Source of the DNA: a virus
IMG/VR virus record: IMGVR_UViG_3300020411_001722
Location: 15,653 to 79,652 of that record
DNA length: 64,000 bases
Strand: one strand, 5' to 3'
Both the position numbers and the translations under genes were made by a program. Under the pieces are notes generated by a model that worked only from the letters and a program-made list of their open reading frames with translations, had not been told where the DNA came from and made no database searches. Shown in pieces: positions 9,227-56,820 of this stretch; position 1 is the first letter of the stretch, and each line of letters opens with the position of its first letter.

Positions 9227-9286
9227 ATTATACCAATAAAAAACCCCCTGAGTAGGGGGTGTGTGTCAGTTTGTGGACTGTCACAT
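9227..9286 (-). promoter_or_regulatory. Early promoter module C with embedded terminator
   Basis: ATGTGACAGT-6-ACTGACACAC, hairpin ACCCCCT-ACTC-AGGGGGT plus a T run, then TGGTATAAT. Confidence 0.7.
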
Positions 9287-10951: not shown

Positions 10952-11506
10952 TTAGGGCACATTGCTTAATCCTTTTGGATCATGCTCATCTAGTGTGTAG
11001 TTTAGATGCCAAATGTATCCTAGACTATACCTAACTGGTGATTTAGTAGGTGGTAGTCCTTGATGCCATATTGTAGAGTTGAATAAGATCAATCTACCTT
11101 GCTTAAATGGTACTCTATAAGTCTCCTCTAGTTCTGTATTATAGAATACAGTGTCACCATCACCTACTACTTGATAGATGCCACTGATCCTTGTGTTACT
11201 ATTAGAATCAGTATGTGGTTGTGCATTTAGTCCTTGTGTCTGACAATTAAGTAAACACCTATCTAAATGATCTATTTTATAATCTAATAGTATATCATTA
11301 CATACACATTGATGTAAGTAATCAATAAAGAAAAAGGGTGGACATGGTGCCACCCATACTTCTCTTTCTACTAAATTACAACCAAAAAACCTACTTGTTT
11401 CATAGTCACCATAAGGTGAGTTAGTATATGTAACAGGTACAATAGGTATTTCAGATGCAACCTTATCTATTAACCAATCTGGTAAGTAACCATCAATAAC
11501 TTTCAT
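10952..11506 (-). CDS. 2OG-Fe(II) oxygenase
   Basis: HTD...GDTVFY...FKQGRLILFNSTIWHQG...RYS. Confidence 0.8.
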   Translation of the reverse strand: MKVIDGYLPDWLIDKVASEIPIVPVTYTNSPYGDYETSRFFGCNLVEREVWVAPCPPFFFIDYLHQCVCNDILLDYKIDHLDRCLLNCQTQGLNAQPHTDSNSNTRISGIYQVVGDGDTVFYNTELEETYRVPFKQGRLILFNSTIWHQGLPPTKSPVRYSLGYIWHLNYTLDEHDPKGLSNVP

Positions 11507-11509
11507 ACT

Positions 11510-12727
11510 TTAAACTAATGCTAGAGGGGGAATACCTTTGTTGAAGATAGCATCAACTACATTCTGTATTCTACTATGTGTTTTCTTTCCATATGACTTA
11601 TGTACTGGAATAGTGACATAACCACATGGTTTCTTATACATTGCGAAGCAACCTGCTGCTACTTCACCATTACGAATTCTTTGTGAATCCTCCTTATGTA
11701 GACGTATAACACGACCTACAGTTTGTGCCATCTCAACAACATTTAAGTTGCGTAATAATATAGAATGAGTTAAACCAGATACATTAATTCCTTCAGATAA
11801 TATACTGTAATGGAAGATAACAAACTTCTTATTGTTATCTGAACCCCACTCATTTAATGTTCTAAAGAACTCAGTACGATTAACTTTAGTTGCATTAACA
11901 TAAGCACCAAACTTACTGGTAATATGTAATACATCATACCCCTGCTTATATAATTCTTTGAGTAGCATTGTCTTAGTAATAATATTACCAAGAATACGAG
12001 ATGATGGTACTGATACCAATATCTTTGATGCTTGACTCTCAGGTAACGAATCAACTACATCTTCAATAGTCTTTGCATGATGCACGTGTGCATTTTCACG
12101 ACTAAAATGTGTATTTGTTTCGTATGTAATTACTTTAGGTGGTATGATTGCACCAGACTTGATTAACTCTTGTGCTGGTACTGAAATTAGTATGTCACCA
12201 TATACATCACTGTTGTTCATACCTCTGTAACTTGAGTTAGAGGTCTTAGGTGTAGCAGTGAAGAAATATGCTCTAGTAGCAACAACTTGTGCTGTTGGAT
12301 AAAAGAACTGTTTTGATGTGCTATTATGTGCCTCATCAAAATATATGGAATCAATATGTATACCTGACTCAACAATCTTATGAAGTGAGTGGTATGTTGT
12401 AAAGATTATACGATTATAATCTCTATTTGTATAGTGCCAATCATTGATTGCGTCACTATTTGTTGTGTTAATAAATCTTGTTCTGCCTGAATGACAATGA
12501 ATGACTTTGGCATCAATGTGTGCATCAAAGTCTTCACATAACTGCTGTGCTAGTAATATTCTAGGTGCAACAACCACAATGGATTGTCTATTAGAAGCAC
12601 ATAGTTGTTGTGCATGTTTAATCATAACAAAAGTCTTACCACCACCTGTAGGGATGATAACCTGACCTTTATTAGATACAGTCATTGCCTCCAGTGCCCT
12701 ATTTTGATGTGGACGTAGAGTAATCAC
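11510..12727 (-). CDS. SF2 DEAH-box helicase (type III restriction Res-like)
   Basis: LRPHQ Q-motif, PTGGGKT Walker A, DEAH, TAT, SEGINV, QTVGRVIR. Confidence 0.9.
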   Translation of the reverse strand: MITLRPHQNRALEAMTVSNKGQVIIPTGGGKTFVMIKHAQQLCASNRQSIVVVAPRILLAQQLCEDFDAHIDAKVIHCHSGRTRFINTTNSDAINDWHYTNRDYNRIIFTTYHSLHKIVESGIHIDSIYFDEAHNSTSKQFFYPTAQVVATRAYFFTATPKTSNSSYRGMNNSDVYGDILISVPAQELIKSGAIIPPKVITYETNTHFSRENAHVHHAKTIEDVVDSLPESQASKILVSVPSSRILGNIITKTMLLKELYKQGYDVLHITSKFGAYVNATKVNRTEFFRTLNEWGSDNNKKFVIFHYSILSEGINVSGLTHSILLRNLNVVEMAQTVGRVIRLHKEDSQRIRNGEVAAGCFAMYKKPCGYVTIPVHKSYGKKTHSRIQNVVDAIFNKGIPPLALV

Positions 12728-12750: not shown

Positions 12751-12898
12751 GTTGAGGGAACGGGGCATTGACCTAGGTTTCACCTAGATGCCCAAATTTA
12801 CCTACTGGGAATCGCTTACACCTGAACCCCTACTACTCATATCTTAGTAGGATAACCCCACAAATGAGTTTCGGGCAGTAGAACCGTTATCCCTCAAC
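12751..12898 (-). ncRNA. Candidate structured non-coding RNA (family not identified)
   Basis: Fills the gap between MTase and helicase; its ends pair (GTTGAGGGAtaACGG / CCGTTCCCTCAAC) and there are several internal helices. Confidence 0.55.
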
Positions 12899-12905
12899 AA
12901 ATATA

Positions 12906-13856
12906 TTATAGACCAAACATGACCTGTTCCAACAGTGAGTGTGCTGGTTCCTCATCTGGCACACGCTGTTGTATCAACTCACCATATCCCTCGTGCAGTT
13001 CACAACCAATATAATCTCTACCCAACTCACGTGCCACCATAGCAGTGGTACCTGATCCCATGAATGGATCTAGTACAATATCCCCTTCCTCGCTTCCTGC
13101 CTTGATACAGGGTTCAATCAGATCAGGTGGATAACATGCGAAGTGTGCACCTTTATATGGTTTATTGGTCACTGACCAGACAGAGCGTTTATTCTTTGTT
13201 GGATATGATTTCGTAAGACCTGAATGTGGTTGTAGTCCTGATCCTTCGTTGTGATACTTTCCTTTTGTTCTGTCTCTGGTTCCCCAGTCTTTTGCTGGTT
13301 CTTTGATTGCTTCATTGTTATAGTAATATTTTCTATTCTTACTCAATAAGAAGATATATTCATGTGACTTAGTACATCTATCTCTTACTGACTCTGGCAT
13401 AGGATTTGGTTTATGCCATATAATATCTTGCCTTAAATACCATCCATCTGCTCTTAATGCAAATGCTAACATCCAAGGTATACCAATTAAATCTTTTTCT
13501 TTGAGTCCTTCGAGTCTGTTTCCTCTACGAGGACACACATCTGGTAGGTCTTGCTTAGTAGTTGATACTGTTTGTTTTGCCAGTCCTTGTCCTCTGCCTG
13601 GTCTGTAATTATAGTAAGAATCGCCAATATTAACCCAAAGAGTTCCATCATCTGTGAGCACATTTTTCACCTCCCTGAATACCTTCACCAGTTCATCAAT
13701 ATATTCCTCTGGTGTTTGCTCTTGACCTATTTGTTCACCTTCTCCACCATAATCACGTAATCCATAATAAGGTGGTGATGTAACACACATACGTGCTTTC
13801 TCATCAAATTGTGATAATGTCTCTCGACAATCACCAAATAATACTGTATTTCGCAT
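12906..13856 (-). CDS. Beta-class DNA methyltransferase (N4-C/N6-A)
   Basis: N-terminal TSPPY catalytic motif, C-terminal DPFMGSGTT SAM-binding motif. Confidence 0.92.
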   Translation of the reverse strand: MRNTVLFGDCRETLSQFDEKARMCVTSPPYYGLRDYGGEGEQIGQEQTPEEYIDELVKVFREVKNVLTDDGTLWVNIGDSYYNYRPGRGQGLAKQTVSTTKQDLPDVCPRRGNRLEGLKEKDLIGIPWMLAFALRADGWYLRQDIIWHKPNPMPESVRDRCTKSHEYIFLLSKNRKYYYNNEAIKEPAKDWGTRDRTKGKYHNEGSGLQPHSGLTKSYPTKNKRSVWSVTNKPYKGAHFACYPPDLIEPCIKAGSEEGDIVLDPFMGSGTTAMVARELGRDYIGCELHEGYGELIQQRVPDEEPAHSLLEQVMFGL

Positions 13857-14197
13857 TAGCGTTTTTTGACTGGTGGTAACATGTCATTTCCTGGATGATC
13901 TCCTACAGGTCTCCAGTAATTACGTTTGTTTTGGAAGTGTTGATCCTCAATTTCAAGTTCATCCCAAGCACACTCAGGACATACAACATTAACCTCATTC
14001 CATTTACTTTTAGCATGTTGAGCAACCTCTGGTGGTTTCTCCCAACGGTGAATACATATGGTTATGTACTCGTCACTTATGAAATTAATATAACCTTCTT
14101 CACCTCTCCAGCGTACTCTTCTACCCTTTTCGAGTGATTTAAGAATGTTCCTTAACTCCAACGCAACTGCCTCCGATAATAGAATAGGTATGGTCAT
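13856..14197 (-). CDS. Hypothetical protein
   Basis: 113-aa ORF coupled to both neighbours. Confidence 0.65.
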   Translation of the reverse strand: MTIPILLSEAVALELRNILKSLEKGRRVRWRGEEGYINFISDEYITICIHRWEKPPEVAQHAKSKWNEVNVVCPECAWDELEIEDQHFQNKRNYWRPVGDHPGNDMLPPVKKR

Positions 14198-14733
14198 TAT
14201 GTCAACTTAATGTAACGGTTCTCTAACTCTGGTGGAATCGGATCTGTCTCACCTATGAATATATCCATTGCCATACTGATCCGTATATTATCTGTAGGAT
14301 TCTCAGGTACACCATGCTGCATCTCACTAGGAAATACTGTCATCTCACCTATACAGTTCTTATACTTCACACGCTCATACCACGTGCCTATCTCAGGGTC
14401 ACCACGTAAGAATATATTAGCAGAGGTGTGACCTCTACCATGTGCATGTGGTTTAATACCTTCACCCTTCCTAAATGTATTTGCCCAACACTGAACAGTA
14501 CATTTACCAAAGATTGCAATTAACTTAGGTACAACAATAGATTTAACTGGATCATCCTTTAAGTAGTTATAACACCAATGCCTACCAGATAATGAGTCAG
14601 GTGCAACTTGACCTTTACCTTTAAATACATCATCACCCATTGCTTTAACATCATCCTCAATGTCAAGTATATGGTCAGCAATAATATTACTCTCAATAGA
14701 GGTTAAGAAATCGTAAGAAGTAATAGCAGTCAT
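14197..14733 (-). CDS. 2OG-Fe(II) oxygenase family protein
   Basis: CWAN...PHAH...FPSEMQHGV...RISMAMD. Confidence 0.8.
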   Translation of the reverse strand: MTAITSYDFLTSIESNIIADHILDIEDDVKAMGDDVFKGKGQVAPDSLSGRHWCYNYLKDDPVKSIVVPKLIAIFGKCTVQCWANTFRKGEGIKPHAHGRGHTSANIFLRGDPEIGTWYERVKYKNCIGEMTVFPSEMQHGVPENPTDNIRISMAMDIFIGETDPIPPELENRYIKLT

Positions 14734-15359
14734 AATGTTAGTAAATTAGTAAAGTCTCCATATGAACCATCCAACCAATAATTAAATGCTACAGAGTAAC
14801 GGTGTTCATGTGATGTATTAGGTGCAACTGAATGTACACATGTAGATGGAAATAATGCTATCAATCCGTTTCTAGGTTTTATTGCCCATTCACTAGAATT
14901 TAATAGATTCATCTCATTTAATTTTGGCATGAATACTGGACTAATATATGTTGGGTGATTAGTATCATTATGAAATGATAAATTACCTGAATTCTCATTG
15001 CATTGAATATATATTACCCCACTATAAAGACTATGAGCATGACTGTGACTATGTGCACTATCACCATTTAAATGTCTAGTTGCCCATGAGCATGTATGTC
15101 TCAATGTATATTTTCTATCTACTGATAATTCACCATGTACAAAGAAGTCTAAATGTTTCTCAACTATTGCTCTAAGTTCTGGTATATTTTCTAATACTGT
15201 TTGACTCTCTGTACATGCACCATTATATTGTTTAATATCATCAATATAATCTAAATCTTTAACACGTTGGAGTATTTCTGGTGTGATTATATCTTGTGCA
15301 AGATATAATGGTGTGGAGAACATAGGCATGATCTCCCATTTATCTGAGGGTGGTTTCAT
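14730..15359 (-). CDS. 2OG-Fe(II) oxygenase (TIGR02466-like)
   Basis: FSTP...HSH...SGVIY...FPSTCVHSV...RYSVAFN. Confidence 0.85.
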   Translation of the reverse strand: MKPPSDKWEIMPMFSTPLYLAQDIITPEILQRVKDLDYIDDIKQYNGACTESQTVLENIPELRAIVEKHLDFFVHGELSVDRKYTLRHTCSWATRHLNGDSAHSHSHAHSLYSGVIYIQCNENSGNLSFHNDTNHPTYISPVFMPKLNEMNLLNSSEWAIKPRNGLIALFPSTCVHSVAPNTSHEHRYSVAFNYWLDGSYGDFTNLLTL

Positions 15360-15485: not shown

Positions 15486-16145
15486 CTATATTCCCTGCTT
15501 AACATAATTCCAATCTGGTTCTCGATATGAATCCATTATTAATCGTCTAGTAGGTGCACTAAAGTCACCACACAACATAATATTAAAACCTAGAGAATAT
15601 CTATCCTCAGTATTATTATTAATACCAGTATAATGATCTACATGAGATGGAAAACATACAATCATACCATTCTCAGGTCTAATATTCCATTTACGACTGT
15701 TCTGTATATTATCCTCCCACACTGGTGGATCTAATGTACCTGTATTCCATGTAGCATGATTATATGATGCTTCAAATATAAGATCCCCACTATCTTCTGG
15801 AACATCAAGATATAAACAACCAGTGAACATACTATTTGTATGTCCATGTCTATTAGCACTATGACCTGTAGGATGTTTGTTAACCCAACTACACACAATA
15901 TCCATGTGCATATGATCCTCAATTGCTAAGAATTTATAGATATATTCTGCACAATGTTCAATGCAAAGTTGTTTTAAATCTGGATATTTCTCCAGTATTT
16001 GTTCATCAACTGTACAACTTCCATCTAATTGTTTAGGATAGTCATGATATTCTTCATTCTTGATATCATCAAGAGTTTTTCTTGATATTCTATTTTCATA
16101 TGTTCTAACCGATAATGGTGTAGAAAATAGTGGGAATACTTCCAT
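15486..16145 (-). CDS. 2OG-Fe(II) oxygenase (TIGR02466-like)
   Basis: FSTP...SWVN...HGH...FPSHVDH...RYSLGFN. Confidence 0.85.
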   Translation of the reverse strand: MEVFPLFSTPLSVRTYENRISRKTLDDIKNEEYHDYPKQLDGSCTVDEQILEKYPDLKQLCIEHCAEYIYKFLAIEDHMHMDIVCSWVNKHPTGHSANRHGHTNSMFTGCLYLDVPEDSGDLIFEASYNHATWNTGTLDPPVWEDNIQNSRKWNIRPENGMIVCFPSHVDHYTGINNNTEDRYSLGFNIMLCGDFSAPTRRLIMDSYREPDWNYVKQGI

Positions 16146-56531: not shown

Positions 56532-56604
56532 TAGGAGTGATGGGATTCGAACCCACACTGTAGAGATTTTAAGTCTCCTGTCTCTGCCGTTGGACTACAC
56601 TCCC
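56532..56604 (-). tRNA. tRNA-Leu(UAA)
   Basis: GGGAGTG/CACTCCT acceptor, anticodon arm GGAGA-CTTAAAA-TCTCT, GTTCGAATC; short variable loop. Confidence 0.85.
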
Positions 56605-56608
56605 TAAG

Positions 56609-56682
56609 CGACCCAAGTAGGATTCGAACCTACGACCAACGCTTTAGAAGAGCGATGCTCTTGTCCACTGAGCTATTGGGTC
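56609..56682 (-). tRNA. tRNA-Arg(UCU)
   Basis: GACCCAA/TTGGGTC acceptor, loop CTTCTAA, GTTCGAATC. Confidence 0.9.
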
Positions 56683-56690
56683 AATTAAGG

Positions 56691-56762
56691 TAGGACTACC
56701 GAGAATTGAACTCGGTTCACTCCGTTATAAGCAGAGGGCATTAACCAATATGCGATAGTCCC
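56691..56762 (-). tRNA. tRNA-Ile(UAU)
   Basis: GGGACTA/TAGTCCT acceptor, arm CTCTG-CTTATAA-CGGAG, GTTCAATTC. Confidence 0.85.
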
Positions 56763-56795
56763 GACCCCATTTGTTTGACTCGTAAACTATAGCAT

Positions 56796-56820
56796 AAAAA
56801 AAGACCCCCGAAGGGGTCTT
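56796..56820 (-). terminator. Intrinsic terminator followed by an extended -10 (TGCTATAGT) for the tRNAs
   Basis: AAGACCCC-TTCG-GGGGTCTT plus a T run. Confidence 0.8.

Follow-up and report, generated by a model that had tools for sequence, protein, structure and literature searches.

The stretch of DNA analysed here (the window) comprises 64,000 nucleotides (nt) of the IMG/VR virus record IMGVR_UViG_3300020411_001722 (positions 15,653 to 79,652) and was assigned by DNA comparison to the T4-like cyanomyoviruses of Prochlorococcus and Synechococcus. The parent viral record is 79.6 kilobases (kb) long, with an estimated completeness of 44%. On the minus strand of the window, between the genes of a DNA methyltransferase and a helicase, lies an element at 12751-12898 that a first-pass annotation had proposed as a multi-helix non-coding RNA. 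We found that this element is a genuine multi-helix structured RNA with a conserved autonomous fold, and that it belongs to an uncatalogued family of structured RNAs of P-SSM2-like T4-type cyanomyoviruses. From upstream to downstream, the locus contains the following features:

12906-13856, minus strand: gene of an N6/N4 DNA methyltransferase of 316 amino acids (aa), upstream of the folded RNA
12905-12932, minus strand: sigma-70-type promoter-like site with 10 of 12 consensus matches (-35 box TTGGAA at 12932-12927, 16-nt spacer, -10 box TATAAT at 12910-12905)
12751-12898, minus strand: folded RNA domain of 148 nt, a three-way junction closed by helix P1
12728-12750, minus strand: U-rich linker of 23 nt, CCGUUCUUUAUUUCAUGUUUUAA, joining P1 to the helicase start
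11510-12727, minus strand: gene of a ResIII/DEAD-type helicase of 405 aa with a GTG start at 12727, downstream of the folded RNA

The distance of about 24 nt that had been given between the end of the element and the helicase start is 23 nt when counted to the GTG codon. The element had also been described as richer in G+C (GC) than its surroundings. With a GC of 0.47 this holds for the helicase side (0.30-0.39 in the helicase gene), but not for the 3' end of the methylase gene (0.46-0.48). As annotated, there are no tRNA features: ARAGORN detected neither a tRNA nor a tmRNA in the element, and in the whole window only three tRNAs at 56532-56762.

When the window copy was folded as a single sequence, a free energy of -51.3 kcal/mol was obtained (z = -2.07), and 8 of 200 shuffled sequences folded equally well. 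Since this is only a modest gain over chance, the case for structure rests on comparative data, in which compensatory changes were visible from the first alignment of relatives onwards. In a MAFFT alignment of 27 sequences, 97.6% of the cells were paired and 15 of 31 pairs had changed on both sides, which was not equalled by any of 500 shuffles. When 96 distinct sequences were aligned to a covariance model, 98.0% of 2752 cells were paired and 22 of the 31 pairs were double-changed, again with none of 500 shuffles reaching these values. Pair counts on such a model-fitted alignment are biased towards the model, and the MAFFT alignment agrees with them. As a control, the partners were slid by 1-3 columns in the 96-sequence alignment, upon which pairing fell to 39-52%. 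In addition, energy folding of five insert-free members recovered all helices in three of them and most helices in the other two. The multi-helix RNA that had been proposed for the minus strand, with a correctly quoted sequence, is thus borne out by covariation, which had been suggested as a check and proved to be strong. Its fold consists of the following parts:

12898-12890 with 12759-12751, minus strand: helix P1a, 5' strand GUUGAGGGA, 3' strand UCCCUCAAC, supported by covariation
12889-12888, minus strand: bulge UA in the 5' strand of P1
12887-12885 (ACG) with 12762-12760 (CGU), minus strand: helix P1b, supported by covariation
12884-12883, minus strand: J1/2, GU, invariant
12882-12876 (UCUACUG) with 12807-12801 (CAGUAGG), minus strand: helix P2, supported by covariation
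12875-12873 (CCC) with 12830-12828 (GGG), minus strand: helix P3, supported by covariation
12872-12831, minus strand: variable P3 tip or insert, missing or different in most relatives
12827-12808, minus strand: J3/2, the 20-nt junction GUUCAGGUGUAAGCGAUUCC, invariant heart of the family
12800-12794, minus strand: J2/4, UAAAUUU, invariant except for rare changes of the first base
12793-12789 (GGGCA) with 12767-12763 (UGCCC), minus strand: helix P4a, three of five pairs double-changed
12788-12782 with 12778-12772, minus strand: helix P4b, two of five pairs double-changed
12784-12776, minus strand: invariant tip of P4, GGUGAAACC

Double changes were found in all eight modelled pairs of P1a and in two of the three pairs of P1b, and P1 still pairs in divergent members despite a quite different sequence. 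Six of the seven P2 pairs were double-changed, while the opening U-G wobble was kept in 84 of 91 cells. In P3 the numbers of C and G shift together (CC/GG, CCC/GGG, CCCC/GGGG), and CCUC/GAGG and CUCC/GGAG also occur. Conserved G-U and U-G pairs are specific to the minus strand; on the opposite strand they would read C-A, which identifies the minus strand as the functional one. Covariation indicative of a pseudoknot within the element was not found. We also considered a peptide gene. In relatives, CAUAGG in P2 places a UAG in the one frame that is open in the window copy, and the other two frames are stopped inside the invariant junction; with stop codons in all frames among the relatives, the element is not a peptide gene.

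Six helices had been drawn in the first-pass annotation. Its first, second and sixth helix correspond to P1, P2 and P4a/P4b (12793-12782 with 12778-12763) and are features of the family, while the other three are not. The third helix, CCCGAA/TTCAGG, cannot form without a C-A mismatch, does not occur in relatives that lack the insert and does not covary. The fourth and fifth (ACTCAT/ATGAGT and GTGGGG/TCCTAC) do occur in the energy-minimised fold of the window copy, but they lie in the variable insert at 12872-12831. The alternative pairing UGCCCGAA/UUUGGGCA had to be abandoned: it is broken whenever P2 or P4a vary, one of its pairs is unpaired in 11 of the 27 sequences, and it shows no double changes. 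The element is not a two-state pairing switch. The segment TGTAAGCGATTCC, which had been left unpaired, was read correctly and lies in the 20-nt junction, which is invariant but for three positions.

The family consists of about 140 IMG/VR viral contigs together with P-SSM2, P-SSM5 and single-cell marine viruses. Exact matches to a 19-mer of the unpaired centre were obtained in at least 119 IMG/VR contigs, and a second scan without this 19-mer added 21 further members. The common core was present in 147 matches of our covariance model R1, with true members scoring 80-140 bits. The window copy scored 132 bits across the full length of R1; as this copy is part of the R1 seed, independent support comes from the core that is common to about 140 other contigs. 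It carries all hallmarks of the family, namely the P1-P4 junction, GUUCAGGUGUAAGCGAUUCC, UAAAUUU and the GGUGAAACC tip. Members range from 111 nt in the shortest form to 389 nt. With blastn, the 3' half was matched in P-SSM2, P-SSM5 and five single-cell marine virus assemblies, and among about 50,000 deposited phage records matches were restricted to P-SSM2, P-SSM5 and marine single-cell viruses. The copy of P-SSM2 is located at 56699-56818 and is unannotated.

The element is single-copy in P-SSM2 (252 kb), in a 202-kb record with a completeness estimate of 100% and in two large partial records, and the partial record to which the window belongs also has one copy. One contig (L020) has two copies 0.9 kb apart, at 2127-2258 and 1218-1337, both on the minus strand; the second copy is degenerate, with a score of 69 bits and an apparently missing normal 5' strand of P1. 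Roughly a dozen fetched viral loci terminate within the element (L009, L017, L023, L036, L044, L074, L079, L085, L086, L088 and others). If these are true contig ends, the invariant core amid variable sequence may break metagenome assemblies; some of them are possibly mere limits of the stored stretch.

A cellular origin of the element was considered and rejected. The 19-mer occurred in five unrelated bacterial contigs of 185,579 prokaryote species genomes, which equals the chance expectation, and these five contigs scored just 13-17 bits with R1. A 19-mer search of these genomes followed by R1 scoring thus did not find the family, and its range is confined to phages. The element matched no family of Rfam 15 either, a comparison that had been suggested with the annotation and that covered all models of riboswitches, ribozymes, xrRNAs, 5S, RNase P, 6S and tRNA. 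The whole window gave only three tRNAs at gathering thresholds, all elsewhere in the window; cmscan of the element with its flanks gave no match at E ≤ 10, and five loci with insert-free relatives gave none at E ≤ 1. Resemblances to 5S ribosomal RNA, the J11/12 region of RNase P, domain IV of the signal recognition particle RNA, twister and boxB were dropped, as cmscan matched none of them. The core sequence was not found printed in the literature searched, although the motif may be among the unnamed entries of one catalogue of more than 10,000 viral RNA candidates (PMC10690425). One broad literature search on non-coding RNAs of P-SSM2 returned nothing relevant.

About 45 unpaired positions are at least 97% identical among the 96 distinct sequences. 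Nineteen of them had been fixed by the first search pattern, and sampling was repeated with a pattern outside this segment. In the resampled set the 19-mer was altered in 21 of about 108 true members, and the changes in distinct variants were confined to the third, fourth and tenth position of the junction. At position 3, U was replaced by A in 11 and by G in three distinct variants and never by C. Position 4 was changed from C to U in one variant and position 10 from U to C in two, one of which also has A at position 3. An altered middle A of the P4 tip was not observed in any family member in IMG/VR. For comparison, the protein genes next to the element in these loci reach a median of just 0.44-0.67 identity at fourfold-degenerate sites, with amino-acid identities of 28-67%. 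Since these neighbours are near saturation at silent sites, the conservation of the core does not stem from recent common descent.

The core was also examined for leads to a tertiary fold. A pseudoknot between UUCA (junction positions 2-5) and UGAA in the P4 tip was rejected, as 14 distinct sequences have A or G in place of the second U without any accompanying change in the tip. In the GUAA segment of the junction, the sole change is GUAA to GCAA in two distinct sequences. This change would be tolerable for a GNRA-type loop, and we regard these two sequences as a lead. Double T-loop modules, which dock tRNA elbows, carry the signature AGNNA...UGNNA (PMC3664808). The invariant AGCGA (12816-12812) and UGAAA (12782-12778) fit this pattern, which is short, so that a chance match is likely. 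The platforms of the double T-loop module are almost exclusively purine:purine, whereas the would-be platforms here are U:A and G:C; in the former, U is replaced by C in two distinct natural variants while the A is fixed. Moreover, the UGAAA loop of the element is without spacer bases, unlike that of the module. Because its platforms lack the purine:purine composition, we did not assign the RNA to the double T-loop module, and the signature is a weak lead only.

In contrast to the core, the tip of P3 is variable and ranges from 6 to 222 nt across the family. Among 114 parsed members, 42 have short loops, 45 the arrangement GAA..AGUA and about 26 the arrangement AAAC..GAAAGUGGU. The window copy has GAA (12872-12870) opposite AGUA (12834-12831), which as a sequence pattern resembles loop E or the sarcin-ricin loop. 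Further inside its insert follow the stem ACUCAU/AUGAGU, which is specific to this copy, an inner hairpin GUGGG..CCUAC and then UAAGAU. Hairpin modules found inside P3 inserts also occur free-standing on either side of the element in other phages. The tip of P3 is permissive and accepts other RNA modules as grafts. A hairpin with its tail, UGUGGGGUUAUCCUACUAAGAU (window 12841-12862, minus strand), recurs in inserts of L020, L032 and L123, and a 22-nt exact match of this module lies in an unannotated intergenic region of P-SSM7 (NC_015290 43768-43789). A word resembling (U)GUAAG(U/A)CC ends many other modules.

Next to the fold, the position of the element relative to a promoter-like box is fixed. 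In the window, the -10 box ends 6 nt ahead of P1 and shares bases with the methylase stop codon (12908-12906). In 46 of 73 distinct upstream flanks, the end of a -10-like box lies 3-10 nt ahead of P1, with a gap of 5-6 nt in 35 of them, and 29 of the 46 boxed flanks have an extended-10 TG. The other flanks have a TAAAGT-type box slightly further upstream or another RNA module. Because of this fixed gap, the transcript is predicted to start at the first base of P1 in most phages, the start sites being consensus predictions. In relatives, an intrinsic terminator often stands directly upstream of the element's promoter, and in many of these loci it is of the CCCCC...GGGGG-U6 type. A strong terminator of this kind is also present in the window, where ACCCCCUACUCAGGGGGU followed by UUUUUU lies at 9243-9260 on the minus strand, 3.5 kb downstream of the element; it is likely the end of the transcription unit headed by the element. 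A further terminator-like hairpin at 11355-11336, on the same strand and also downstream, lies inside an open reading frame (ORF) and may be a chance match. Contigs of an oligo-dT marine metatranscriptome, with 5% of the words in common, cover mainly the conserved methylase part and come from relatives.

In 106 of 115 loci the nearest upstream ORF lies on the strand of the element. Many loci have an ORF that begins 20-40 nt past P1, as does the window after 23 nt, and a U-rich tract follows P1 directly in just 11 of 82 flanks. The downstream ORFs fall into more than 25 clusters with unrelated annotations or none. Neighbours vary between methylase, helicase, DUF7717, a glycine-zipper protein, phrog_1987 and many small ORFs without assignment, and no gene consistently adjacent to the element, which could encode a protein partner, was found across the loci. 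A boxA-like UUCUUUA after P1 of the window copy is no feature of the family, as just 11 of 67 distinct flanks have YUCUUUW in the 30 nt that follow P1. In about 20 loci (L016, L025, L041, L064 and some 16 others), P1 is followed immediately by a 3' module of about 55 nt that forms an H-type pseudoknot; this module is absent from the window. Its stem A is supported by compensatory changes (CUAAUCC/GGAUUAG, CUAGUC/GACUAG, GCAUGUC/GACAUGG), stem B consists of GGUAGUUUC/GGAAACUACC, a GGAGG is located between the two, and the module is often followed by a U tract. The module could be a regulated terminator or a trap for the ribosome-binding site.

Three genes of 2-oxoglutarate-Fe(II) (2OG-Fe(II)) oxygenases are found within 4.5 kb around the element, all on the minus strand (10952-11506, 14197-14733 and 14730-15359), two of which overlap by 4 bases. 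The tRNA cluster at 56532-56762 (minus strand), 44 kb away from the element, encodes Leu(UAA), Arg(UCU) and Ile(UAU). Each of them decodes codons that end in A or U, a choice that suits an AT-rich phage supplementing its host.

An invariant core, strong covariation, a fixed promoter spacing and a single copy are marks of an important function. Ribozyme, riboswitch-like leader and small RNA had been named as candidates in the annotation. Among these, the promoter geometry favours the leader, although computation cannot narrow the choice to one. We tentatively favour a cis-acting 5'-terminal leader domain that would bury the 5' end of the transcript and bind a conserved host factor. In this scenario, the host sigma-70 RNA polymerase is predicted to initiate at the TATAAT overlapping the methylase stop codon, with the first base of P1 as the first transcribed base. 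The RNA then folds by itself into the closed three-way junction of P1, P2-P3 and P4 that is demonstrated by covariation, with its 5' end buried in a helix of 9+3 base pairs and its invariant core of about 45 bases displayed. It would probably form the 5' end of an early transcript with the helicase and later genes, and act there in cis as a leader. Enclosure of the 5' end in a helix is a classical escape from 5'-end-dependent decay, and the sealed end may accordingly be hidden from RNase E or RNase J. Cyanobacteria depend on both enzymes (PMC8682795), and RNase E is induced during cyanophage infection (PMC2518516). Since protection alone leaves the invariant core unexplained, a putative conserved host partner was added to this model: the core would lock the fold and bind a conserved component of the host RNA-decay or transcription machinery.

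The leader position is indicated by the co-orientation with the neighbouring genes, the nearby ORF start and the scarcity of U tracts after P1. Independence from the cargo is indicated by the downstream genes (helicase, DUF7717, small ORFs), which differ by locus. Several points weigh against a 5'-terminal leader domain. The 5' end of the transcript is a prediction, and the comparison with RNA data was uninformative on ends and level. A simple 5' hairpin would be enough for protection, leaving 45 invariant unpaired bases to be explained by a putative host binding partner. Moreover, in about one sixth of the distinct upstream flanks the element is not 5'-most but stands behind other RNA modules, and such chains and nestings of modules, each with a closing stem, resemble precursors of stable small RNAs more than leaders.

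This last point leads to an unlikely alternative, in which the element is a trans-acting stable RNA that is processed from the early transcript like tRNAs or the small stable RNAs of T4, and may serve as a decoy, sponge or guide directed at a host target, which could be a defence or decay factor. A closing stem that brings the 5' and 3' ends together would suit such a molecule, as would the one copy in each of four long phage records and in the record of the window, the different neighbouring genes in different phages, the chaining with other conserved modules, which P3 also holds inside, and the U-rich tract straight after P1 in 11 of the 82 flanks. However, most copies lack a terminator, many are placed 20-40 nt ahead of a start codon, no processing signal was recognised and any partner is putative. 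Independence from the cargo, and a position immediately after an early promoter where a multi-gene unit begins, would also be expected of a processive antiterminator of the HK022 put type, whose nascent RNA would bind its own polymerase to pass terminators in the early region. The element occurs in one or two copies per genome, invariant unpaired bases would suit the contact with a highly conserved host enzyme, and terminator-like hairpins stand downstream on the same strand at 11355-11336 and 9260-9243. Yet the element has no similarity to any known antiterminator RNA, put RNA being two simple hairpins, the hairpin at 11355 lies inside an ORF, and read-through is hypothetical. We consider an antiterminator improbable. 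A recombination, replication or packaging signal acting at the level of DNA and having no role as RNA is the least credible explanation, and we regard it as extremely improbable. It would fit a single-copy element in a region where gene order is shuffled between phages, and the several fetched IMG/VR loci that end within the element. It is at odds with compensatory changes that keep the helices, including G-U pairs readable on one strand only, with an orientation fixed relative to transcription and with a fixed spacing from the -10 box.

It is also doubtful, though conceivable, that a new class of functional RNA has its active centre in this core and works either as a riboswitch, sensing a host metabolite or infection signal, or as a self-cleaving ribozyme. 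If so, the new class would be a single-copy cassette of abundant ocean cyanophages that tolerates modules grafted into the tip of P3. As a riboswitch, the junction would be an aptamer for a host metabolite or signal that controls the genes behind it. The architecture is aptamer-like: P1 closes the junction, the bases of the junction are invariant and the peripheral stem varies. The element also occupies a 5' leader position; a GGAGG-bearing module that resembles a pseudoknot or terminator comes directly next in about 20 loci, and orphan riboswitch-like motifs are known from cyanophages (PMC2864571). There is, however, no conserved alternative pairing, the version proposed in the annotation being broken by variation. 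A common expression platform is lacking as well: downstream sequences fall into many unrelated classes, the distance to the ORF varies, and the downstream genes are mutually unrelated and not of one functional class. The diversity of the genes downstream and the missing conserved expression platform thus speak against a riboswitch of the classical type, which we rate as rather unlikely. A self-cleaving ribozyme of a new class, trimming or separating the modules of the early transcript, seems very improbable. Many small ribozymes share the combination of a compact, highly conserved core with a peripheral stem of variable length, and one junction position tolerates U, A or G, never C, between fixed bases; against this, no known class was matched, pseudoknot covariation was not found, and the element is single-copy instead of dispersed. 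A cis-acting leader domain at the 5' end of the transcript remains the reading that we prefer.

Few viruses of the sea are as abundant as the cyanomyoviruses of Prochlorococcus and Synechococcus, and the control of their early genes is almost uncharted. Taken with the conserved modules that form chains with it or sit inside it, the element points to a layer of RNA in the early programme of ocean phages that is still unexplored. Its small size (111 nt in the shortest form) and its presence in the cultured phage P-SSM2 make it open to direct experiment. New in this analysis are the test of the switch, the unbiased spectrum of core variation, the spacing between promoter and P1, the comparison with silent sites and the absence from cellular genomes.

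Several known RNAs resemble the element in part. Stabilisers at the 5' end of messenger RNAs (mRNAs), such as the 5' untranslated region of ompA, are simple stem-loops without sequence constraint. They share with the element a helix at, or a few bases from, the (predicted) transcript start at the head of the mRNA. The element differs from them in being a three-way junction of 111-389 nt with about 45 invariant unpaired bases. The put RNA of the lambdoid phage HK022 consists of two simple hairpins in about 70 nt and mediates processive antitermination. Like the element, it is a phage RNA made just behind an early promoter, with a possible action in cis whatever the cargo, but the two have no similarity in sequence or architecture. 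The rnaC and rnaD of T4 are structured small stable RNAs of about 120-140 nt with paired ends, encoded in a cluster of tRNA genes. They too are structured RNAs of a T4-type phage, without an assigned function, that occur within multi-RNA transcripts; however, they lie among tRNA genes whereas the element heads protein genes, and the likeness comes without any homology being shown.

Orphan motifs of cyanophages, namely manA (RF01745), wcaG (RF01761), PhotoRC-II (RF01717) and relatives of the glutamine riboswitch, have been described by Weinberg et al. 2010 (PMC2864571). Like our element, these motifs belong to T4-like cyanophages, are intergenic and co-oriented with the genes that follow, and were found comparatively, most of them without an assigned function. 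They have no similarity in sequence or structure to the element, which in addition, unlike manA or wcaG, is not bound to one gene class. By virus group, manA, wcaG and PhotoRC-II are thus the closest known relatives in kind, while by proposed mechanism the closest are the 5' stabiliser hairpins and put RNA. The family is new, and the kind of RNA to which it belongs, structured leaders or small RNAs of phages, is already known.

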